DNA of 48,878 bases, filler included, from Bipalium vagum (taxonomy: Eukaryota), in the NCBI GenBank assembly GCA_037834085.1. It is 2 parts of 2 records of this genome, joined end to end, with 100 filler letters (N's around TTAATTAATTAA, not from the genome) between each part and the next. Parts side by side here need not be neighbours in the genome. Positions count along the whole stretch, not along the records: positions 27,857 to 48,878 come from JBBMKC010242941.1; 1 more part is not named here. One strand, 5' to 3'. A model generated the notes under the pieces. That model saw only the letters and a program-made list of their open reading frames with translations, was not told the origin of the DNA and did no database searches. Position 1 is the stretch's first letter; every line of letters begins with the position of its first letter. The position numbers were made by a program, and so were the translations under genes. Of the stretch, positions 1,874-45,379 are shown in pieces.

Positions 1874-2090
1874 TCAAAAACTCATTTCTTCAAATTTTTT
1901 CTTGTCGCATTTTCTAGTAATGTCCAAAGGACACTTCATGTCGACCAGAAGTATGGTTTTATTGTTGATATTTGTGATCAATAAGTCAACTCGACCTGTT
2001 GAATTTGGAATCTCTTTGCAAGTGGTGTCCTTAGTATTGATAATGTTTGGAGACATAATGGAATCGATTTTGGAATTTGTGCAGATGTGT
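1874..2090 (-). mobile_element. Relic of a restriction-like endonuclease (RLE) domain of an R2/NeSL/R4-type non-LTR retrotransposon
   Basis: GRVDLLITNINNKTILLVDMKCP resembles the RLE motif (K/R)PD-hh-x(n)-hhhDhxxP. Confidence 0.45.
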
Positions 2091-2749
2091 TTTAGCCAAA
2101 GATAAGCTGCAGGTACATACATCATTGCCTTAAATTCTACATGACCTTTGGGCTTAAAAGGCCGATAATGAAGTGTTACTGTATTGGTATGAGCTTTATG
2201 TATAAAATTAAAAAACATGAACCAAGGTTACTTCTGAAGATCATTTTGTTAATTCAAGATAATTTAAACGTGTCACCACATCGGAATCAGTTATAGCACT
2301 GGCTCCCACTTATGAAGAGTGTAGTATCAATATTTTCTTCAAAGGCCATCAGGATACCCAAAAAAGAGTGATTTCCGAAGTCAGAGTCGAACTCGGAATT
2401 ATGAGCCATCGACGCCGCCATCATCCCACTCATCAATATATTCCCAGAAACGTTCGCTATATCTCTGATATATTTAAACCCTCTCCTCTATTTCTTCTCA
2501 ATAATTTGCTACAAAATCACTTCCCGTAATCACAAAAAATATTTTTCTCTTTATCACCAAAATCTTATTTATAATAATAATCACTACAAAAAATGTTTAT
2601 CACAACAAAAATATCTCAGATAGAAACCGCTTTTGGTTCGAAAACCTTTGTTAACCTTTTTAAAAAAATCAAAATCATTTTCCATTGGAAATAAAACCAA
2701 ACCAGCTATGTCTGATTTCATAAAACAAAAAATATATTAAAAACTACAG

Positions 2750-3111: not shown

Positions 3112-4620
3112 TACTGGTTGACATAATTATTTATACTACGATTAAAAAATGTTAATTAACTGTTTACTTTTATAAAAATGAATACGAAACCTGAAATATG
3201 ATAACTTGATGTATTTATTTGTTAAGGATATTCAAATAGGTTAATTAAAATTATTTTGTTTATATAATTTGCAATATTTATAATTTATGCTCACAATTTA
3301 AAGGACATAATTATTTATACCGTAAGTAGTTTTGATAATTAAATTCAAAAATTATAACTTTAAATAGATGTATTCTAAAGAAATTAAGAGAACGACAATT
3401 GAATTAAGAAAAAATGGCAAGACATATACAGAAATTGGAAAGATTTTAGGATTAACGAAGTCTGCAATTTAAAATTTAATTAATTATCAAAAATTTTGGC
3501 ACGAAAAGAAACAAGGTCCCAAATTCAAAATAAATTAAAAAAATTCAACAATCTTACGGCGGCATATATCAAAAGAAAACGAAAATGGTATTAAAGTGAA
3601 TGCCAACACCATTCTTAGAAATAATAATTTAACAGTCTCTGCAAGAACCGTTTCCAGATGGTTGTAGCGACATAATTTCCATTACCAAAAGGAAGCACAA
3701 CGTATCATAACACAAGGTTGACAGAATTTTTAAAGTATCTTCATGGAAATCCACAAATATTGTATGGGAAAATACTGCTTTTGTTGACGAAAAGGGGTTC
3801 TCCTTAGATAGTTTTAAATATTATTGCAATATTATTTTAATCCATGAAAATGAAAATAAGGTTTATATACAATGCTGGGGGAAACGTTTTATGCCGTCAG
3901 CGAAGACAAAAAGGAGGTGGTGGATTGATGTACTTTTGCATCACTTTTCCTAATGACCTAATTTTACTTCGTGAGTTAGTAGGTATTCAGAAAGGTGAGG
4001 AATACAAAGCAACATTCAATACCTTAATTGTGCCATCAATTTGTTTGAATATAGGAAATCCAGCAAACTTGGTGCAAGATAATTGCCGGATACACACCAG
4101 AATCGCTCAAGAATGTTATCAGACCAACGATATAAATATCATCGACTGGCCTTCGAGGTCACCAGACATTAACATAGTAGAAAACGTTTGGAAGTTGCTC
4201 AGTGACTTTGTTTATGCTGAGAAGCAGCCGAAAAACCTACTTGGACTGCGACAGAAAATCAATCAGGCTGCAGATATGATAAATAACACAAAATGATATG
4301 TTATTATTAATCTGTATAAATCTTTTAGAAGTAGGTTGGTCAATGTGTTGATTAAAAAAGTAAATACAATTAATTAAGCTTTTCTTTCTTTTCTTTTCAT
4401 AAGATACTGTAGTGGTATAAAAAGTTATGTCCTTTATTTTATTATTGATAATCAAAATTACAAAATAATTTACAAAATTATATATTTCCAATTTAGAAAT
4501 ATATATCAGTACGTAGGAGATTACAACAGACATTTTTAAAATTGAACCAACAGCAAATTCCTTAATTGAGATAAATTCACTTAAAGAAACAATAAGTATA
4601 AATAATTATGTTTACCAGTA
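3112..4620 (+). mobile_element. Tc1-family (DD34E-type) transposon, near full length, decayed, with IR/DR-type termini
   Basis: Ends TACTGGTTGACATAATTATTTATAC (3112) and GTATAAATAATTATGTTTACCAGTA (to 4620), each flanked by TA. Inner copies of GACATAATTATTTATAC at about 3304 and inverted at about 4415-4431. Transposase motifs FVDEKGFSLD (about 3780), VQDNCRIH and WPSRSPDINIVENVW (ORF 3844-4296). Confidence 0.9.
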
Positions 4621-13437: not shown

Positions 13438-14614
13438 AAAAATATTATAACGAAAATATTATTTTTCCAAAATATTTTTTTTTAAAAATAAATAAAATTA
13501 TTTAAAAATTTTATTAAATGAAAAAAATTTAAATTATAAGTGAAAAAGAAATACAGAAAAATTATTTTTAAATAAAACAAGAATAAAATTTAAATTAGAA
13601 TGGTAGTTTTGAAAACTGAGTTTTTATTGGTTATAAATGTAAATTAATAATTGATTGGTCAATTTTTTCTTTATAAATATATTTCATATTTGAGTCATAA
13701 ACTATTCAATGTTGATTCCAAAAGTTATAAAAATTTTCTTTTTCTGATTCTCTATTTCTTATAAAAAATTTTTCAGGAGAACATGATTTGAATTTTATTA
13801 AAAAGGTATAATTGCAAAACACCATCATCATTTTTCAACAAAATTTGGTCCCTCAAAACTTGTAAAATTCAGAAAAAATTATTACTATATATTTTTTGTT
13901 TTGCATAAATAAAGACATTTTCTTGGTAAGAAAATCTCACTTTCAACGCACACGCGTGATATTCATATGTTACAAATTAAAAGAATGACGAAACGAATAT
14001 CTGTTAATTGTAGTTGGAGTGTCATAAGTGATAAAAGTTTCATCATAATACTAAAGTGTTCGGTGGTTGCAACCATATTAAAATCATTACGGAAACAAAG
14101 ATCCATTGATGAAGTTGAGCACAGAAATTGAGAAAAGACAGAATGAACAGGAACGAAGACCGCTTATACTACTTCACGACACCTTCAGTCGTCTTACTAT
14201 TTTATAGATCAGGTGAATGCGGTCTATGTGTCACTAATTCTACATATTTAGAGACTTAAAAATTAAAGTATTATTATTTTATTTTTATTAATTTTTTTAT
14301 TATTATTTATATATTTGAGTTTTATAAAAATATTTCAAATATTAAATAAATAAAATAAAAATGTTATTCGATCCTTTTCATCCCAGGTTGAGAGAAAATT
14401 TTTCAATGATATATAAATATATTAATCAATAAATGGGAACATTGCACGATACAATCGAATGCAATTAATATTTTTAATCATATTTTAAAATTAAGACTCC
14501 CCATTTATGTTCACATTTTCAGTTTTTTAATAAATAAATATTTTTATTAATTATAATCATAACAATTATAATAATCATCATTATTATTACTATCATAATT
14601 ATTACAAAAATTAG

Positions 14615-14910
14615 ATGGAAGAGACAAGTCTCCAAGTTCTTTGGATACTTCATTGGATGATTCCTCAGACAACTTCCAATACTACAGGAATGTATTTTAC
14701 TTATATTCATCAACCTCACCAACAAGTGACGGGATTGATAATGAATCTGTAGATAGACTCCGCACGTTCGTTTGGCCCATTGAATCCGTCAGACATTTTG
14801 GATTCAAAGACATGTTTTTTTCGTTCGACTCTGGAAGATCCTCTTCAACTGGAGAAGGACGCTTTACTTTTAAAATCAAAAAACTAACTTTGTTTAAATC
14901 ACTATTCCAG
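14615..14910 (+). CDS. FRS2: FRS2-like adaptor, exon 2: C-terminal half of the IRS-type PTB domain
   Basis: Acceptor ttag|AT (phase 1). FVWPIESVRHFGFKDMFFSFDSGRSSSTGEGRFTFK matches the FRS2/DOK signature WxYxxLRRYGxDxxxFSFExGRRCxTGxGxFxF. Donor CAG|GTAGCA is phase 0. Confidence 0.9.
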
Positions 14911-15199
14911 GTAGCAATATATATTTATTTATTTTATAAATGAAAGAAATGTATAACTTTTTTACTAAAAGAAAGGAATGTTTGAACAGTCTTGAAATCT
15001 TCAATATTTTTAGATAAGATATAAAAAATTATTAAGAATGAAAAAGAATTCATTATTTTATTCCTTTATTGAATAAAAATGTAAATAAATAAATCAGAAA
15101 TTAAAGAAATATTGGTTTCATGAAAAAGTATTTGCCTATTTTGCTTTAATTGTATCTTAAATAAAATAATCGATGTTTAAATAATATTTAAAGATCGCC

Positions 15200-23937: not shown

Positions 23938-25339
23938 TACCTGAATTTTCTGAATAGAGGCTCACATGTATACAAGTCAACTACGTCCACTATATGGAAT
24001 TTGCATGTATAATTAAGGCCCATGTCCCAGTATTAGGAGAAATAAATGTAAACATTTTTAGTTGCTAATGAGCCACCCTATTATATCATGACATTATCCT
24101 ATTAAGTTTGTCTAGCGAATTTTTATTAATCTATATATCAGGTTGTGTAGTATGAAATTTGTAGGTAATCATTTTACAAATTTGATACTACACAACCTGA
24201 TAGTCTAAAAATAGCTAAAATCCTACACCATCCAGGAAAAACTGCAGTTTGTGGCACACTTAAGGGCAAATAAAAGCCAAAATTTGATATCGCAGCAGAC
24301 AGGCATTGGTAGGATGAATATTCGTCATTAGTTAAAAAACGAATTTGCACGTTTGACTTTTTAGGAAGCAAAAATGTTGATGGTGCTGATACAGTGTACC
24401 GAAAATGCGATACACTGTTTCTTTGACAATATCATTGGATGTATGCACATATGATTAATTTTTGTTGCTTAAAGAAAATTTAAAGTAACAATCCCCCTTG
24501 CATTGTAACAAATCCGTTGTTGTTGTAAACCAACACGCATCAATGAACACAACTATTTGGAAGAATTGGGTGGATATCGTTTTCTGAAAGAGAGGATCTT
24601 ATTTTAATAACACTCGGTCAGTAAAAACTTCTGATCCATATGGAACTCATATGTCGGAAGAAAATTTGAAATATCTTTATAAAAAATATGTATCAACGGC
24701 AGTAATAATTCCAGGAAAAACGACGCACTACATGCATCAACTAAATTTTGTAATAAATTCCAATTTCAAAAATGCTATGAGAAATGAATGGGTGAATTTG
24801 ACTAGAGATGGAACTCGTGAGTTTAGTCAAAAGTGTATCGAAAAAGACCATCTTACCAAAAGATTGTTGGAGTGGTTATTTCTGCCTGTAATTCAATCTA
24901 ACCTAAATCAATTCAGAGAGCATTTAAATGTTGCGAGAAAGCTGCAAATTGACAAGAAGTAAGGTACAATATTTTTAATGAAAAATTGCAAATCATCTTA
25001 AAAACAATCTTGGGCTTGAAACTGATAATGATGATGATATGGAAGTTAGTGACGGAAGTGATCAAGAATTAACAGAATTGGGTCAAGACGATAATAATTC
25101 TCCCATTACTGACTCAGACTGGTCTGATACAACAATTTCTGAATGTTATTAAATTGTATATAACACTGATTAACCAATTATTCCATTGTCCTTATTCTTT
25201 TATTTTTTTATACTATTTATAGTAACGGTCTTTCTAATGTTTAAATATATGAAATTTATATATTTGTTTCCGATTTGACGAGCATACAAAATTTATTTCC
25301 TTTTTGAGGCCCATGTGCCTCTTAACGGAAAATCCGGTA
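23938..25339 (+). mobile_element. Decayed pogo-family (DDE_1) transposon
   Basis: Degenerate TIRs TACCTGAATTTTCTGAATAGAGGC (23938) and GCCTCTTAACGGAAAATCCGGTA (to 25339). IIPGKTTHYMHQLNFVINSNFKNAMRNEW matches IPGGxTxxLQPLDVxINxPFK; acidic C-terminal tail. Confidence 0.8.
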
Positions 25340-27044: not shown

Positions 27045-27300
27045 TTATTCTTTACCCTTAGGAGATATAATTTTGATAATACAGTAGTATTTGAGGCGAG
27101 TATGATGGCAGAAATCTGTCATCAACTTAATAACATCTTTGTGGTGATGGAAACTGCAATTGTCCATCACCGATACATCCTCAGGATTTCGATCGAAATA
27201 ATTGAATAGCTTGTCACTAATAAAGTCCATAAAACTGTTTCCATCGAAAGATCCGTCTTTGATTTCGAAGCATAATATGCCTGTAAATTTGATTTAATAA
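27045..27300 (-). mobile_element. IS630/Tc1-like transposase fragment
   Basis: DVSVMDNCSFHHHKDV (hMDNxxFH), preceded by ILCFEIKDGSFDG. Confidence 0.65.
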
Positions 27301-27856: not shown

Positions 27857-28158
27857 CAATGACGATTTGAAAGCACTGGTTGAGAGTGATCCACTTACCA
27901 CTGTTCGAGAAATTAGCCGTAAGGTAGGCGTTTCCGCTATGGCTGTTTCGAACCATCTTCGCCAATTAGGAAAGTCAAAGAAATTGGACAAATTGATTCC
28001 ACACAATTTTTTCGAATCGGGATAAATAAGCTTGTCGTTCGCTGGGAGTGTACAGTCTGGCGGATTCTATTTTGATATATAAAACTTTGTTTAAGCTGTC
28101 ATGTGTTCCTTTAAAGTTAGATGTTAAAAACCGCCATTTATTTCTTTACCACCTAACA
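27857..28158 (+). mobile_element. Mariner fragment (HTH region and right TIR)
   Basis: NDDLKALVESDPLTTVREISRKVGVSAMAVSNHLRQLGKSKKLDKLIPH; end AAAACCGCCATTTATTTCTTTACCACCTAA. Confidence 0.8.
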
Positions 28159-28556
28159 TAATAAATTGATTAATTTCCCATATAATTCAATAAATTGAAT
28201 TAAAAGTAAATAAATTAATTTAAATCAAAATTCTATCAATTAATCAATTACTAAATTAATTAATTTTAAATTCAATCAATTTACTCGATTAATTTAACAT
28301 ATTTTATTTAATTTAAAATAAATTAATTGATTTGTATTTAAATTCTATCAATAGAATTGATTAATAAATTAATTAATTTAATTAAAAGTCAATTGAATCA
28401 ATTAATTAATTAATTTTCATTAAGCTAATAGAAAACTATTTTTCTTCCTTTATTTCATTTTAAAAAATCTTATTAAATAAAATGAAACAAACGAACAACG
28501 TTATTTTATTAAGTTCTTGTTAAAACAGTTTTCCCCATATTTACAGACACTGAATA

Positions 28557-28835
28557 TCATCGTCCAAAATGGAAAGGTACATATGGTGCTCTTCTTCTCT
28601 GATATTGGCCAAAGGGAAAGTTCCTCATCTGGTGACCCTCTTGTGTGGATAAGACGTTCCTCAACCAATTAGTATCATGTCTCAAGTTTTCCGAAAACGT
28701 TTTGTAGTCTGTCAACAAATGAATTAAGGTGTAATCAAATATTAAATATAAAGTACCATCTTTATCGTATTCCGCGTTCCCATATGAAATAAGCATAGCT
28801 TGCAGGACAAGGACAAGTGCCAGAAATGTTTCCAT
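28557..28835 (-). CDS. Secreted neuropeptide precursor (exons 28835-28757 and 28708-28557; 76 aa), predicted product APYVPFHF-amide
   Basis: Hydrophobic signal peptide METFLALVLVLQAMLISYGNA. In-frame 48-nt GTACTT...TTGACAG intron at 28756-28709. C-terminus RRR-APYVPFHF-G-R-stop (convertase site plus amidation Gly). CTAAC...TTTTCAG acceptor 10 nt before the ATG; AATAAA about 50 nt after the stop. Confidence 0.8.
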   Translation of the reverse strand: METFLALVLVLQAMLISYGNAEYDKDGTLYLIFDYTLIHLLTDYKTFSENLRHDTNWLRNVLSTQEGHQMRNFPFGQYQRRRAPYVPFHFGR

Positions 28836-29479
28836 ATCAAAATGTCTGAAAATATAAAACCGTTAGAAATGTTCCACTACCGTAAAAGTCAAATATCGAA
28901 TGCGTTCTCTGATCCGATGACTTTTCCTCCACCTTCATCATTCAATTATGCCCTACACATTATGCACACCAAAGGGTTTTTGAACTCACCTCACCAAAAA
29001 AGCCTACAAATCCGCTCATTCCATCAATTGGCTGAAAGGCGACTTTATTTTTTGTTTAAATCAGATTTAAAAGGATAAGAAATAAATAAATAAATAAAAT
29101 AATTCTATTTTAAAAACAATTATTTGTTTAAATGTAATGGTTAATTAGAAGGAAGTTTCAGATCTCTCTATTATGGCCCAATAATTGAACCAACAATTAC
29201 CCTATTATATGAAACGTTAATTGGGAAAGCTGATAAAATAAAAGCGCTTTGCCACAATGGCAAAGGTAATTGAAGGCGACCATGCCACCAAATTGCCATC
29301 ACTTTTCAGTTGGCTTTATAATTGAGTACAAAATAAAATAAAATAATAAATAAATAAATAAAATGAAACTTGGAAACTGTTTCAGAAAAAATGTTTCAGG
29401 CTCTTTCAATATTTGAGGGCCTGAAAAATATGTTGTTTTAATCTGAACCATCGAAAACGAAAGGAGATCGTTCTTTGAT

Positions 29480-29830
29480 TGGATTTTCTGAATCTCAAGA
29501 CCGGTGATATATCGATTTGTATGACGAAACAAGGAATGATATCAAAAGGATTGACTTGGTCAAGATCATTGGTCGAACGCTAAGCGATCACGTGATTCGT
29601 CTACTACATGACAACGGCCCCATCCGAGCATCTTTCAAATACAAAAACAGGAATACAGTCCTGATCCTTCAAATGTTGCCTGTGCCAATTCGGGTGAAGA
29701 ATTATTTCAAGAATTATTTATACTCAGAAAGAAGACGGAGAGATTTCCAATGAAAAAGAATGCAAATTCGAATATTGATCAGCTTAATTTGGAGGGACGG
29801 AGGGTGGCAAATATTTGTACCGAATTTGTA
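29480..29830 (+). mobile_element. Mariner C-terminal fragment
   Basis: IRLLHDNGP motif, followed by remnants of the typical ..RW..hh terminus. Confidence 0.5.
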
Positions 29831-32800
29831 AAGAGAACTTTGATTGAGTTTGCTTTATTTCTCCATGGTAAGAATGGGGCATTTTTTATTTTTACTACGC
29901 GACTCTTTTATTCTTTAGAAATTATTATTTTCTGTTTACAAAACAAAGCCCTTTCGATTTTGTACGGGTGCAAACAATAAATATCCACTTCGGACAGATA
30001 CAAATTTTCCTAGACTGATAAAGTATGCATTATCATTATGGCTCTCGTCGTAATATGAGCGACAGTCTCAAGAAATGATTTATGACGGACTCTCAGACAT
30101 TCATCAAAATATGAATTTATGGTCTCCTTGTTCGGAAGGAGAATAATATTATCACAACATCGGGCGAACATTATTTTGTATTATATTAATAAAAGTATTG
30201 TATAAGGTCAAATGATCAAAAACACAATTTCGTTAAGACTTGTAAACTCGTCCAGTGACAAATTACTCGATTCTTTACCATCTCAGAATAATAGTTGGAA
30301 AAATGAGACAAATTAAGCATCCTCAAAGGATATCGTTCTATGAAGTTGTTCGAATATGAAATTCTCCATGATACGTTTCAAGAGAGGATCATGAGCAGCC
30401 GAGGAGAAGAAAGATATGAAGGTTTGAGATTTCAAAATATTCGTACCGGTTTCAAATGTGAGGAATAACAAAAAAGTTTCTTTTTCACTGAAACAGCGTT
30501 CTAAGACTTACATCGTAATAGAATTAGTATCAAATAAATACATTAATATACAATAACGACGTCTTCCTCATTCATTCGTTAAATTGCCTTGGAAAATACT
30601 TCAGACTTGAGTAAAATATTACTATTATTATTATTATTAATTCGGCATTTTATATATCTTCTGATAATGTCCTCAGAAAAATAATTGATTGAGTTGTTCA
30701 TAATGACAGTCATAAGAGTAAAAACAAGAAACAAAAATAATATCAATAATAACATTAAAAAATAATATTATCAATATTGATAATAATAAGATAATGAAGA
30801 AGAGCTTTATTTTTATTACTAAAATAATATATAAATTTTATATTTATTATATTTATATATTTATCTAAATATTATAAATATAAATAAATTAATAAATAAG
30901 TTGAAGTGAATTTAAAATAACCATATTTTACAAGGACGTTAAGTTTGTTTAATTAAATCATTTTAAAAAATAATTAACGTTTAATAATTTGAAAAATTAT
31001 TTCATTAATTTCAGTTTTGGTTTTACTTGTGATCAATAATTTTTTATTTATTGCTTTGACCTTTTGCCGATAAAAGTCTCCCGGTTTCTCTTCATCAAAA
31101 AATATTTTTCTTTGAGTCCTGATATAGTTAATATGATATAGCAAATCATCTAATTATAGATTATACTAATCAATATATTTACATATAACGATTAATAAAT
31201 ATGAGGCTTTTGGATTAAATTGGTTAATTTAAACAAACAGAAATTTTGGATATTTACGTGCATGTTATCGTTAAGACTGTTATATTTACGAAAAACGAGT
31301 GTTTATCAAAAAATATTCATTTTATATTGACAAAGATAAATTAACGAATCCCTATAAACATTTTTGAACTTTAACATACGGGACACAACGCAGGCTAACT
31401 CTTTCGGCGTCCATTTCAAAACAACTTAACAAATAGAAATTTAACGTGCACAAATTTCATTTCAAATAAAATAATTTGTCATCTAAGTGTGAACACGCAC
31501 GACGAAAACCATTGGATAAAAACGATGAGTCATTTCACTACAAATATTAACATTAATTAATATAATTAAAAAGTAAAATTAAGATGAAAGAAAGAAGTCT
31601 GGATTCCGTAGTGTAAGGGGACTTCCAGTTTTAATTTATTATTTAATTTGAGTTAAAAATAATTATTATATAAATTCTTAAAAATTTGAAATTTAAAAAA
31701 GAACAAATTTCGGTAATTAAAAAAAATGATGCATTAAAACAACTTTTTCTAATCCCTAATAGTTTTATAACATAATTTAATTTTAATATAAAAGTAAAGA
31801 AATGTTTCATAAAAGTTAAATCAGAAATATTTACACCAGCTTTCAGAAATTAGGTCTTATTGTTTTTCAGCAGAAAAGAAAAGCCTGCCAAATTTAAACA
31901 CCGTGGAAAATTGGTGAGCAGCACTCGATAAATCGTTTGGGATTTTCAAAGCAAATGGGAAATCTCTTATTAGACCAATATCCTCTGTGATAGTTTTTAT
32001 TTTATTCAGTAATAATCGAGACCTCTTGAATAATAGTAATAATAATAATAATGATCAACTGGCTTTAACGGAACCTCCAAGAAAATTTGTCAAATAAAAT
32101 TATCATTTGAAAATAATTAAATTATCCCCAGTGTCAGCGGATCGGGCCTTGTCGTCATGCATGAAAGATTTGGAAATAAACCCATCATTGTTATGGTGAT
32201 ATCTTGCCTAATTTGTTGTGTTTCTCCTGTCTTTGTCACGCTTCATTGAGCTTAGCTAATGAAAAATTGGTTCAAAGTCATATTGGCACATACATTTAGT
32301 AAAAGTAATCAATTAATAAAACTCATCATAATTTTGTGGAATTGATTTTTAAGTCCCCTTACAGTTAGTTTTATGCAAGGCACCAATAATTGTAAAAAAA
32401 TAAAAATTAATGTCAGTGAAAAATAACATTTCTAGATCCTAGTGTGAAGTGGTGTTTGCCATCTTTCGAACAATTTCAAATTTTCCTGAAAATCTGTTTC
32501 TTTTTATTGTCAGGAACATCTTTCAAAGTCTCCTTAATTATGTAAATATTCATCTTAAATATGAAGTACCCATTCATCTGTCAAATCAATCAGAAATTGC
32601 ACCGAATCCTCATCTATCAATACATGCATTGCTGGAGTGTGTGCAGCTCCTTATTGCCTGTAGGACAACATGTAAACATCAGAGTAATTGAAACGTTGCT
32701 CATGAAGAATCGAGTGCTTTAACAGCTGTAGCCTGGTTGTATGACTTTTTTGGTTTTAATATATTTATGTGGGCAAAGAAACCCTTGACCGCAGTATTTC

Positions 32801-36289: not shown

Positions 36290-37006
36290 ATTGTTTGTCT
36301 TCCTGATTTTTTGGCCCAACTCGAACAGTTCTTGACCACAAACGATGTAAAACATTTAAATAATATTCTGCAATAACACTTTGACATTTTAAAACAAATT
36401 CCTTAAGGACTATACATTTTGAATTATAAAAAGTAATAAGCATTGTCTTAATTTTTAAAAACGTAGATTTTTGGTTTCGGCTCATCTACTGACTTCCATT
36501 CACTACTTTGACGCTCGGTTTGTGGATAATATTTGAGACACCACGTCTCGTCACCAGTTATAATTGAGTCAATATAATCTGGATTGTTTGCCACATTGTT
36601 GAAGAAATCTTTACAAGATCCAACATGAGCAGCTGTTTGGTCTTCATTTAATTCATGTGGAACAAACTTGGCACAAACCTTTCTTTTACCCAAATCTTTC
36701 GTTAAATTGTCCAAAAGGTAAAGAAATTTGTATTTACTTCTTCTGCTAACATTCTCAGTCATTTTACCACCATACGTAATGATTTCCCGTACTTTTGCCA
36801 ACAAATGTAGACGATTTTCAGCATCCGGATGTCCAAGCGTTACATCGTTATTTAAATCATAACAAACATTTTTAAATCGTGTAACCCATGTAGAGATATG
36901 TGTATGAGACATGCAATCATCACCATTAACTTTTTGTAGCAATTCATATGTCTGTAAGTTTTTTCCCGATTTTAAACGAAAATTTAATATTTGCTCTTTG
37001 TTCCAT
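36290..37006 (-). mobile_element. Mariner transposase, 3'-truncated and frameshifted
   Basis: MEQRANIKF at 37006; KVCAKFVPHEL; IITGDETWCLKYYPQTERQSSEW; KTMLITFYNSKCIVLKEFV (ORFs 36448-36942 and 36216-36485). Confidence 0.9.
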
Positions 37007-37142: not shown

Positions 37143-39150
37143 CAAGTGATTTTCAACTGGGGTTCTTCGGAACCCAGAGGTCCCGCGAGGGAGAGTCAAG
37201 GATTCCACAAAAAATATCAAATTTTCAGAATTGAGTTTAAAAAAATCCTGAATAGTGATTTTATGAAGGTATAAGTCATTCTTTAATCAGTTAATACGTT
37301 ACGATACTTTATATTGCCAAAAAAACTCATTTTTAATCAGTGTTATTATATATATAGAATCAAAAAATTTGTTTTACTGCTTCAAATAATATATATTTAA
37401 TTTTATATATGTCAATGAAACTTATTGATTGGATCTATTTTCTTAAATTACCATTTTGATCGTGAACATAGTCAGATTTTTTAAAGTGTTTGTTGAAATA
37501 CGCTCGTAACATACGACAAAACTAAGGTTATGGAGCCGATTGAAGCTGCTACCATCAACACTACACCAACTCAACTGCAGTTGCCAAAAAATGAAACTGG
37601 CAATTGGCAGTTCAAAGTTCGTCAGTGCTGTGACAATTATCTAGCTCTGGGGTTCACTTGGACGGGTGATCCAGCCCTTAACCACTGTGTGTTGCTTGCG
37701 GCGAAGAATTTGCCAATAGTGCCAAGGAGCCAGCTAAACTTAAGCGGCACTTTACAAATAGAAATCCGGAGGTATCGAATAATAACGCACAGTACTTCCA
37801 CAGAACACTGTCCATGAATAAAAAGTAAATGGCTACGTTTGAGAAAAGGTTCAAGACAAATAAAAAAGTTCAAAAAGCAAGTTACGCTTTAGTGGAGATT
37901 TGATATGTAAATATTTTCAAGATAATTTTGGTATGAAAAATCAACATTAATGAAATAAATCTTTGGTGTTAATAATACTTTAATTTTCAATGCGTTTATT
38001 TATATGTGTTTTTGTAGAATAGTTATCAAGAAATGGTCTGGGGATGTTTTTCGAGTTTGGGTGTTGGAAATTTAGTCTTCCTAGATTGAATAATGCATAA
38101 GGAAGATTATTTGAAAATTTTAGAAGAAAATTTGTTGGAATCTGTGCAACACCTTGGTCTTCAGACTGACTTCATATTCCAGCATGACCGAGACCCAAAA
38201 CATACGGCCAAAATTATTACACATTGGCTTAATCAATCCGGTGTTAATGTCTTGAAATGGATTAGGCAATCACCGGACATGAACCCAATTGAAAATTTGC
38301 AGGTTTTTATGAAGAGAAAACTCAAAGGCAGAGAAATTTCTGAAAAAGATATGCTGAAAAAGTACATCTTGGAAGAATGGCAACAAATTAACCCAGATTT
38401 TTGCAAAAAATTGGTTACTTTTATGAATATGAGATGTAATATGATCATCAAGAATAGGGGTGGTCAATAAATTATTAAGAACAAAATTTTGATACAAATT
38501 TTTTGTTCGCTTATAATAAATGTATTCGTATGGTTAATTTTCGTATTACTCATTTTCGAACATTCAAAAATAATTTATGCTTACAATTCTAAAACAAATA
38601 TTTATATATTCTTATTCTTATTTTATATATCCGGGATAGCTATTATACTTGGAAACAATAGACTTTTATAAAAATGTTTTCTTTTTTAGTGAAGTTATTA
38701 TTTTTTTTATTTATATTATTATCGTACGGATAATTATTGGAGAATATGTACATGACGAGAAATTGTGAGGATTGTGTTTGGAGAGGATGCCGTATCAGAA
38801 ATCAATAAGATTCCGCTTTCAGATAACACGATAAGCAGGCGTATGTTCTCTCAAAAATTAAAAGTCGAGAGTTTTTGCAGTCCAGGTTGTGGAGAGCACA
38901 GATATCAGTGGTAAAGCGCAGCTGCTTGCGTTTGTTCGCTTTATGGACAAGGAAGTTGTCATGGAAGACTTTCTTTGCTGTAAGGAATTGCCGAAAACAA
39001 CAAAAAATCAAAATATTTGTGATATTTTGAATTCGAATTTGGAATCTTGCAAGTTGACTTGAGAAAACTGTGTGCATTTTTTACGGACAGGAAATGTCAA
39101 ATCCTTTGTCTCGCTGACGCAACGACCAAATCCCAATATTATAGTCACTC
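37143..39150 (+). mobile_element. hAT Buster/Charlie-type (ZBED5/SCAND3-like) transposon, decayed and interrupted
   Basis: Left end CAAGTGATTTTCAACTGGGG. BED-finger region VRQCCDNYLALGFTWTGD...CV..C and PAKLKRHF. Resumes after a Tc1 insert with IVRIVFGEDAVSEINKIPLSDNTISRR and ESTDISGKAQLLAFVRF. Confidence 0.85.
37900..38725 (+). mobile_element. Tc1 (DD34E) 3' fragment nested in the hAT element
   Basis: MVWGCFSSLGVGNLV (38033); FQHDRDPKH...QSPDMNPIE with exactly 34 residues between D and E (ORF 38093-38470). Boundaries approximate. Confidence 0.85.
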
Positions 39151-43666: not shown

Positions 43667-43863
43667 CTGAAAGTACAAGGTCAAATATCAACATTACGTT
43701 TTAACCCAGCAAATAAATATAATAATATAAATATAATTGGAACATTTAAGTTGATCCGAAAATAATGATTACTTTCAAAATAAAAACACAATTACAAAAG
43801 ATTTTTTTCATTTTAAAGTGAAAGACGTTTGAAATCATTATTTATTTATTGAATCACATTTAC

Positions 43864-44242
43864 GCTATTTTCTTCATCATCAAAGTCCATCAAAAGAACC
43901 AATTCGATAATGGTTATAAACTCCTGCCAATATTGGGGGAACCCGTACAGAAAAAAAAGTATAAACGGTTCTGCAAGCCGACGAAACCGTTCGGCGTTGA
44001 CAATCTGTTCCCACTCCAATTTGCAAACGGGTCCCACTAATTTGACCAGCCCCGCCTTGGTTAAAACGTTTCTACCTCCACGAAACACTTCTACAATATC
44101 CGACGAAAATGGAACGACCATTCCGTCTGGATCATAAACATGTCCGTTTAAAACATAAGCATTGGCAGTTCCACTTTTCTTTCGGGGCACCCACAGAAAT
44201 ACCGGTTGATAATCGTCAATGGCCAACAGATTTCTGTTGAAT
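43864..44242 (-). CDS. KNL2: KNL2/MIS18BP1-like gene, exon encoding the second SANTA domain
   Basis: VFLWVPRKK...YVLNGHV...FSSDIVEVFRGGRNVLTKAGLVKLVGPV...FLYGFPQYWQEF fits SANTA (W...hxG...SSxI...LxTxxGxxxxLxG...FxxGFPxxW). Acceptor aacag|A is phase 2; donor AGC|GTAAAT. Confidence 0.75.
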
Positions 44243-44295
44243 CTGTTCGATTTTAAAATCAAAAAGGATAAAGAAAAAATCTGATAAAAACTAAC

Positions 44296-44327
44296 TTGTT
44301 CTTGGAAATTACGAACGACTGAATATT
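44296..44327 (-). CDS. KNL2: KNL2-like gene, 32-nt mini-exon
   Basis: gcttcag|NIQSFVISKN-AA|GTTAGT; phase 0 in, phase 2 out; 53-nt intron to 44242 restores the frame. Confidence 0.55.
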
Positions 44328-44625
44328 CTGAAGCAAAAAATATAATTAAGCTAAAATATATAATATATTAAGCTATTAATATAATTAATATTCAAAAAAA
44401 GTGAATTCTATGTTTCCTAGCAACAGTGACTTTTTAAGATGTTAGAATGTAAATTTTTGTAATTCGAAACTGATCGAAATATCATTTCAATCAGTCGATC
44501 GATAATTTACAACTGTACACGGGTTGGAGAGAGTCGATAGAGTTTTTCGGTCGAACGCTCCTCTGCACCAGATTTGAAACAAACAAAAAAGAATGTGGTA
44601 GGAAAATATCAAAAAAAGCAATTAC

Positions 44626-44890: not shown

Positions 44891-44941
44891 CTAAGTTAGA
44901 TCGTCAATACTTTCGGTCATTTTTAATAATGCCGGTCTCAC

Positions 44942-45323
44942 CTAAAATGTGCACCCTTGATGAAAGTATTTAGATTATGAACTTCAATCAGCCATTCGTG
45001 TTTGAAACCCTCTGAGAAAAATTTTTGACAGAAAGTTTTAATATACTTTATTGCCTCGTTCTCATAGTAAATATCATACATCTCAAACGTTTTGATCGAT
45101 AATTTTCCTTCCAGTGAATACAGCTTTGACGGTGATCTCAAAATTCTACCACATTTCGATACACAGATTATCGGCTCGCTCATAAATTGTTCATTAGTAT
45201 CTAATTTAAATCCAATAACAGCATAATAACCACTGAAATACACTGGAAACCAATCTCGGATTCGAGTAAGACTAATATCATTCGATACCTTTTTACCAAG
45301 TATTTCACCATGAACATCCCATA
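44942..45323 (-). CDS. KNL2: KNL2/MIS18BP1-like gene, exon 2 encoding the first SANTA domain
   Basis: TRIRDWFPVYFSGYYAVIGFK...FMSEPIICVSKCGRILRSPSKLYSLEGKL...KFFSEGFKHEW fits the SANTA consensus. Donor AG|GTGAGA. Confidence 0.75.
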
Positions 45324-45379
45324 CTATTAATAATAGATTGTTAATATTTTGTTTTATTATTATTATTATTTAAAGGTAC

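Follow-up and report, generated by a model that had tools for sequence, protein, structure and literature searches.

On the minus strand of the window (the whole 48,878-nt stretch of DNA that was analyzed, with a GC content of 29%), a single open frame runs from an ATG at 28835 to a TGA at 28559-28557 and encodes 92 amino acids without splicing. In its layout, the frame resembles a gene for a secreted precursor from which one amidated peptide, APYVPFHF-amide, is predicted to be released. The features at this locus are listed below in the direction of transcription of the frame.

28881..29229, minus strand, possible upstream exons (29229-29201; 29031-28990 or 29031-28995; 28952-28881)
28846..28866, minus strand, predicted splice acceptor region 5' of the ATG, with a branch-point-like CTAAC at 28866-28862, a T-rich tract, and TTTTCAG (last G at 28846)
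28757..28835, minus strand, coding exon 1, with the ATG, the predicted signal peptide, and the beginning of an acidic spacer
28709..28756, minus strand, predicted intron of 48 nt, GT-AG, phase 1
28599..28708, minus strand, spacer or propeptide portion of exon 2, with single Arg sites and NFPFG at 28622-28608
28590..28598, minus strand, RRR, a prohormone convertase site predicted from the sequence and established convertase rules
28566..28589, minus strand, APYVPFHF, the predicted mature peptide, with the His codon CAT at 28571-28569
28557..28565, minus strand, Gly-Arg-stop, with the amide-donor Gly at 28565-28563, Arg at 28562-28560, and TGA
28470..28510, minus strand, predicted polyadenylation site, with AATAAA at 28510-28505 and a GU/U-rich tract at 28499-28470

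The encoded protein begins with a hydrophobic stretch (residues 4 to 16) in which hydropathy reaches 3.1 in 9-residue windows, followed by a small-residue cleavage region and then by an acidic and polar spacer. On the basis of hydropathy and the -3/-1 rule, a signal peptide of 19 to 21 amino acids is predicted, ending at 28779 or 28773. The features that characterize precursors of amidated peptides as a class are present, namely, a hydrophobic N terminus and a basic site followed by a peptide and Gly plus a basic residue, and the precursor carries one copy of the peptide. The layout put forward in the original prediction, from the signal peptide and spacer through RRR and APYVPFHF to Gly-Arg-stop, was recovered in full, and removal of the GT..AG segment at 28756..28709 gave the 76-amino-acid spliced form that had been proposed. 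The upstream NFPFG, which had been read as a decayed second copy, did not hold up as such: Gln comes after its Gly where a basic residue would be needed for amidation, and its alignment with the C-terminal peptide is limited to FG.

The short intron and poly(A) signal that had also been claimed for the gene were located as the 48-nt GT-AG segment and as AATAAA with its GU-rich tract. The GC content is 0.23 in the intron versus 0.42 and 0.42 in the exons on either side, and, as scored with a rough splice matrix, the intron donor is at the 92nd percentile of all GT sites in the window and the acceptor at the 95th percentile of all AG sites. Since the segment is in frame and stop-free, its splicing is something that we infer, and the C-terminal peptide would be identical whether the intron is retained or spliced. 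Upstream, the TTTTCAG acceptor lies 10 nt before the ATG and scores within the highest percentile among 4,184 AG sites; of 1,704 ATGs, 0.47% have TTTCAG together with CTRAY in the 40 nt ahead of them. The acceptor at 28846 may close an intron in the 5' UTR or serve as a trans-splice site. TTTCAG occurs 66 times in the window versus 32.8 times expected from base composition, with no enrichment under a higher-order model, and this count is not enough to be taken as a sign of a nematode-type acceptor. Downstream, AATAAA lies 47 nt past the stop and the GU/U-rich tract comes next; under thresholds that were set on the candidate itself, such a pair comes after 0.13% of 13,728 sampled positions, compared with 17% for AATAAA alone. 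Exon 1 has a coding-like base pattern in the signal-peptide frame (G1, 0.38; GC1, 0.62; R1, 0.62), and exon 2 gave no codon-position signal in any frame. The minus-strand DNA signals do not depend on the protein features and agree with them.

The layout was also searched for in shuffled sequence. The filter required a Met, an uncharged hydrophobic 8-mer, a length of 50 to 160 amino acids, a dibasic site, 4 to 20 residues, a Gly, a basic residue, and a stop, and within the window it matched the precursor open reading frame (ORF) alone. Among 360 local shuffles, the layout came up 0 times (once when the final basic residue was optional), and it came up in 0 of 1,000 further shuffled windows read unspliced. 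With one permissive intron, 12 of these 1,000 produced it, and 1 of the 12 had an aromatic residue before the Gly. The criteria were chosen after the candidate was known, and a genome holds thousands of such windows; the shuffle evidence for the layout is strong but not final. In DNA run X1, the locus is further covered by a single contig (depth, 14.3), which spans 28425-29319 with 0 differing letters, although this run is possibly the source sample, so that the agreement may not be independent. In the same contig, again perhaps derived from the source sample, the His codon at 28571-28569 is identical (CAT), in keeping with the residue called originally.

We regard it as unlikely that the frame is not a functional precursor and is instead a frame that arose by chance, a pseudogene, the terminal exon of a longer gene in which the signal-peptide exon is not included, or the antisense of a plus-strand gene. 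Such a reading draws on the lack of a homologue among the searches described below and on the 12 of 1,000 shuffles obtained with one free intron. It also draws on the plus strand, where the acceptor at 28546 ranks at the 98th percentile and the donor at 28577 at the 96th, and where a 96-codon frame is open at 28788-29078. However, the base pattern of this 96-codon frame (G1, 0.11; C1, 0.32; R1, 0.42) is not that of coding sequence when set against 8 reference frames (G1, 0.20 to 0.33; R1, 0.50 to 0.63), and the 20 plus-strand chains from 28548 that were listed, of 476, all contain several exons shorter than 30 nt. On the minus strand, the ORF is flanked by the acceptor with its branch-point-like motif on one side and by the poly(A) signals on the other. 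In favor of a longer minus-strand gene, upstream exons can be spliced to exon 2 in frame through sites that all rank at the 95th percentile or higher. Splice-like sites were identified on this strand at 29230, 29200, 29032, 28994/28989, and 28880 (percentiles 84 to 100), and 29 of the 109 exon chains in which every site is at or above the 80th percentile terminate at the precursor stop. Some of the chains that reach the last exon in frame lengthen the N terminus, and some omit the signal-peptide exon. The upstream blocks could be 5'-UTR sequence, first exons used as alternatives, or the tail of an adjoining gene, which leaves the 5' structure ambiguous.

Searches for relatives of the precursor were performed at the levels of sequence and of learned features. 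A word search of proteins (1 candidate) gave 0 matches, and comparison with Pfam and with PDB sequences gave 0 families and 0 matches, respectively. The sole HMMER match among 1.84 billion representatives was a 2,021-amino-acid tandem-repeat protein, which was rejected because it had 0 matched stretches. A metagenome scan produced 115 matches to the pattern and a single locus (L001), where 24 residues matched in GC-rich DNA; this locus did not have the precursor layout and was attributed to chance. A comparison of the window with Rfam gave 0 matches. In the databases searched, no relative of the precursor was found. An exon at 14599-14940 on the plus strand, which encodes an IRS-type PTB domain (PF02174; E value, 5e-8) of the FRS2/DOK-like kind, indicates that the host is an animal. 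Since no homologue turned up for this exon in a word search, nor for a second neighboring exon, the lineage may be poorly covered, and the blank searches for the precursor would then be weaker evidence. Among the openly accessible papers listed, there was no match to APYVPFHF-amide or to a PFHF-amide core, nothing relevant emerged for the neuropeptides of Nematomorpha, and PFHF was absent from the searched supplements of PMC8764417, PMC7615250, and PMC7737342. A cockroach transcriptome contains VPFHF twice in the part available, without a Y before it or a G after it (PMC4864078).

The precursor sequence itself is absent from the ESM Atlas, and a feature search of this resource returned peptide-hormone precursor clusters in 7 of the 8 rows listed, with scores of 0.89 to 0.92 (DH31, NPFF, gastrin/CCK, myosuppressin, PDH, QRFP, and tachykinin-3). 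Gastrin/CCK accounted for 12 of 30 matches and myosuppressin for 6 of 30, and a family was common to 3 of the ten best, a level at which, by the rule for this search, the family is probably wrong. The recognition value was 2209, below the mark of 2300, and only 134 to 152 of 256 features were shared. Among unnamed clusters, the top 2 were of the myosuppressin type (0.91), with 147 of 256 features in common. This result weakly backs the neuropeptide-precursor class and no family in particular, and the score may simply mirror the signal and RRR...FGR features that are already visible.

Taken together, the frame, the motifs, the DNA signals, the shuffles, and the class-level Atlas likeness support the core of the original prediction, a single-peptide amidated precursor, and we consider it probable that the locus encodes a real secreted precursor of this kind. 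For the fuller reading, in which a small spliced gene gives a product that is cut at RRR and amidated to a lineage-specific peptide belonging to no known family, our estimate is balanced evenly between yes and no; the weights given to this and to the other readings are judgments and were not calculated. By established pathways, the precursor would enter the endoplasmic reticulum (ER) and lose its signal peptide after residue 19 or 21, a convertase would cut after the Arg run, a carboxypeptidase would strip the last Arg, and PAM would turn the Gly into an amide, yielding APYVPFHF-amide. The N-terminal Ala-Pro could be protective or could be trimmed by a dipeptidyl peptidase. The peptide would be expected to be secreted by neuronal or endocrine cells and to act via a rhodopsin-class G-protein-coupled receptor (GPCR) as a neuropeptide or hormone. 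The gene is likely to be of an ordinary kind; neither a transcript nor a relative was found for it.

To place the predicted peptide, it was aligned by hand from the C terminus to sequences given in papers. Its C terminus is best described as Y-x-P-F-x-F-amide, of the FxF-amide type, and the best motif match that we found appears to lie with the F-type SALMFamides. In the accessible part of the source on Apostichopus japonicus, ARYSPFTFamide is identical to APYVPFHF at 5 of 8 residues and GYSPFMFamide at 4 of 7, and F-type SALMFamides have the same Y-x-P-F-x-F-amide ending, with a penultimate residue that is variable and often polar (PMC3594158). These peptides match better than the LPxRFamide and PLRFamide types to which the spacing had originally been likened. 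SALMFamides activate kisspeptin-type receptors, and the ligands of the protostome receptors are undiscovered, according to the available text of PMC13020265. This would allow the ending to be homologous to that of F-type SALMFamides, with a kisspeptin-type receptor and a likely muscle-relaxant action, a reading that we hold to be very unlikely. The ending F-H-F-G agrees with FxF-amide, but Val stands in the place of the Ser of SxFxF-amide, and the SALMFamide precursors described in that source are echinoderm and multicopy whereas the precursor here carries one copy (PMC3594158). A 5-of-8 match would be expected about once per roughly thousand F-amide peptides (a rough hand estimate), and the SALMFamide receptor clade, as far as the available text goes, comprises echinoderms and hemichordates only, with the protostome-type receptor lost in ecdysozoans (PMC13020265). 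The bolder version, in which APYVPFHF-amide is a SALMFamide/kisspeptin-type peptide from outside the echinoderms and supplies the ligand that the orphan kisspeptin-type receptors of protostomes have lacked, is a long shot; it would hold only for a lophotrochozoan host or one from a comparable lineage in which the receptor was retained. We doubt that the peptide is a diverged cholecystokinin/sulfakinin-type (NLP-12-like) ligand of a CCK-type receptor with a likely role in feeding or locomotion. The Tyr lies 6 to 8 places from the amidated Phe, as in CCK, sulfakinin, and NLP-12, and the Y-x-P-x-x-F-amide spacing of Tyr, Pro, and Phe-amide is that of NLP-12 DYRPLQF-amide, to which 3 of 7 residues are identical (PMC8764417). 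An acidic residue before the Tyr and an RPL core are present in 10 of 10 aligned NLP-12 rows, whereas the peptide here has Ala-Pro before the Tyr and lacks the R and L of the core; the NLP-12 precursors in these rows have 2 to 3 copies, compared with one here (PMC8764417). The wider CCK-family features, an acidic residue in DY or DYG and an RF, DF, or RPLQF core, are likewise missing, judging by the accessible parts of PMC13485628 and PMC8428848. In favor of this reading, the same accessible text describes nonsulfated ligands as functional in nematodes. NLP-18 (SPYRAFAFA), reported in the available excerpts to be a ligand of CKR-1, shares P-Y-x-x-F-x-F with the peptide and is identical at 4 of 8 positions when its final Ala is ignored (PMC10952047, PMC11004728). 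Its precursor ends the peptide in Ala without an amidating Gly, whereas APYVPFHF is followed by Gly, and the nonamidated FAFA ending, the Y-[RG] motif, and the multicopy arrangement of NLP-18 are not found here (same excerpts). The precursors of NLP-12 and NLP-18 are short, like this one. In the Atlas, the 12 of 30 gastrin/CCK matches speak for this family, and the presence of the family in 3 of the ten best matches speaks against it under the same rule.

An origin within the RFamide family (myosuppressin, FLP, or LPxRFamide type) by replacement of Arg with His is, in our judgment, improbable. Arthropod myosuppressin precursors have a signal peptide, a spacer, a basic site, and one C-terminal F-amide peptide, which is the layout seen here, and myosuppressin accounted for 6 of 30 Atlas matches and the top 2 unnamed clusters (0.91), though with just 147 of 256 features shared. 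The myosuppressin peptide has an LRF-amide ending, for which APYVPFHF offers no counterpart. The predicted peptide carries His (CAT) where an RFamide has Arg, with neither LRF nor MRF and with nothing of the myosuppressin motif, and word search, Pfam, and HMMER gave no sequence match to myosuppressin precursors. The His had been treated as a surprise or as a sign of receptor coevolution, an argument that loses its force given that HF-amides have been published in flies, chelicerates, nematodes, and acoels. The accessible parts of the sources give an HF-amide ending for Drosophila FMHFamide and chelicerate FaLPs (PMC12035899), nematode NLP-13 (PMC8153747), and acoel SxLHFamide (PMC6188537) and, by name only, for polyclad XHFamide (PMC13551398, bioRxiv 2023.01.04.522730). 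The Drosophila peptide is still an activator of the FMRFamide receptor, according to the same accessible text, so that the fly receptor tolerates the change from Arg to His (PMC12035899). However, the HF-amides whose sequences are given in these excerpts retain L, M, or I before the His or come from multicopy precursors, whereas here F precedes the His and there is a single copy. An FxFamide precursor from Urechis unicinctus has F-x-F-G before a basic site with a variable middle residue, as here, but is 509 amino acids long with 15 copies in the available description, and its supplements contain no PFHF or FHFG (PMC7737342). Flatworm npp-26/spp-15 peptides (FDPIxF) were compared and rejected, since just 2 of 8 residues match in the part of PMC2953531 at hand. 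Each of the named families has at least one defining feature that is missing in APYVPFHF-amide, and convergence most likely accounts for its resemblance to several unrelated families. Likenesses to casein-derived opioid peptides and to angiotensin are presumably coincidence. For short motifs of this sort, convergence is described as likely in the accessible text of PMC6188537.

Single-peptide precursors as short as this one are readily overlooked by annotation, and APYVPFHF-amide would be an additional candidate ligand for receptor matching from a poorly sampled animal lineage. If it were an ortholog of CCK/sulfakinin, the motif of that family would be widened; if it activated a protostome kisspeptin-type receptor, a stated open question would be answered.

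Several other elements were noted in the surrounding sequence. Directly upstream of the precursor, the minus strand at 29229-28881 contains three short blocks that look like exons and have strong splice sites. The block at 29031-28990 (minus strand) reads PIDGMSGFVGFFGE, which is loosely GF-rich in the manner of nematode NLP-14 and annelid pedal peptides and is without dibasic flanks. The block at 28952-28881 (minus strand) has a G-rich frame with a TGA three codons short of the donor and would be in phase with the precursor once spliced. On the plus strand, single-copy coding-like frames at 29146-29270 and 29612-29867 (R1, 0.66 and 0.58) have good donors at 29266 and 29868; together, they are probably an unannotated adjoining gene oriented away from the precursor, and 29612-29867 gave no Pfam match. 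Farther away on the minus strand, 44941-45369 and 43849-44367 are coding-like adjoining exons, which by eye resemble the SANTA domain of KNL2/Mis18BP1. This likeness received no backing from Pfam, the PDB, pairwise comparison, or folding: a single-sequence fold of 43849-44280 had a pLDDT of 38, and its comparison with 44944-45324 was not significant. An open frame at 1877-2227 (minus strand) gave no Pfam match; by eye, it presumably contains a short HSP90-like stretch and a restriction-endonuclease-like retrotransposon motif.

Transposase remnants of the Tc1/IS630, pogo, and Mos1 types occur at 3841-4293, 24588-24959, 27048-27293, 36451-37005, and 38090-38467, with matches to DDE_3, DDE_1, and HTH_48 that are all under the Pfam cutoff. 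Just beyond the predicted poly(A) site of the precursor, the sequence at 28160-28430 has a GC content of 0.08 to 0.16 and contains degenerate direct and inverted repeats. A Mariner-like transposase fragment with HTH matches lies at 27857-28156 on the plus strand. The summed contig depth for this fragment in run X1 is above 50,000, versus about 16 for single-copy DNA, a depth that is not a copy number; the fragment belongs to a very abundant repeat family.
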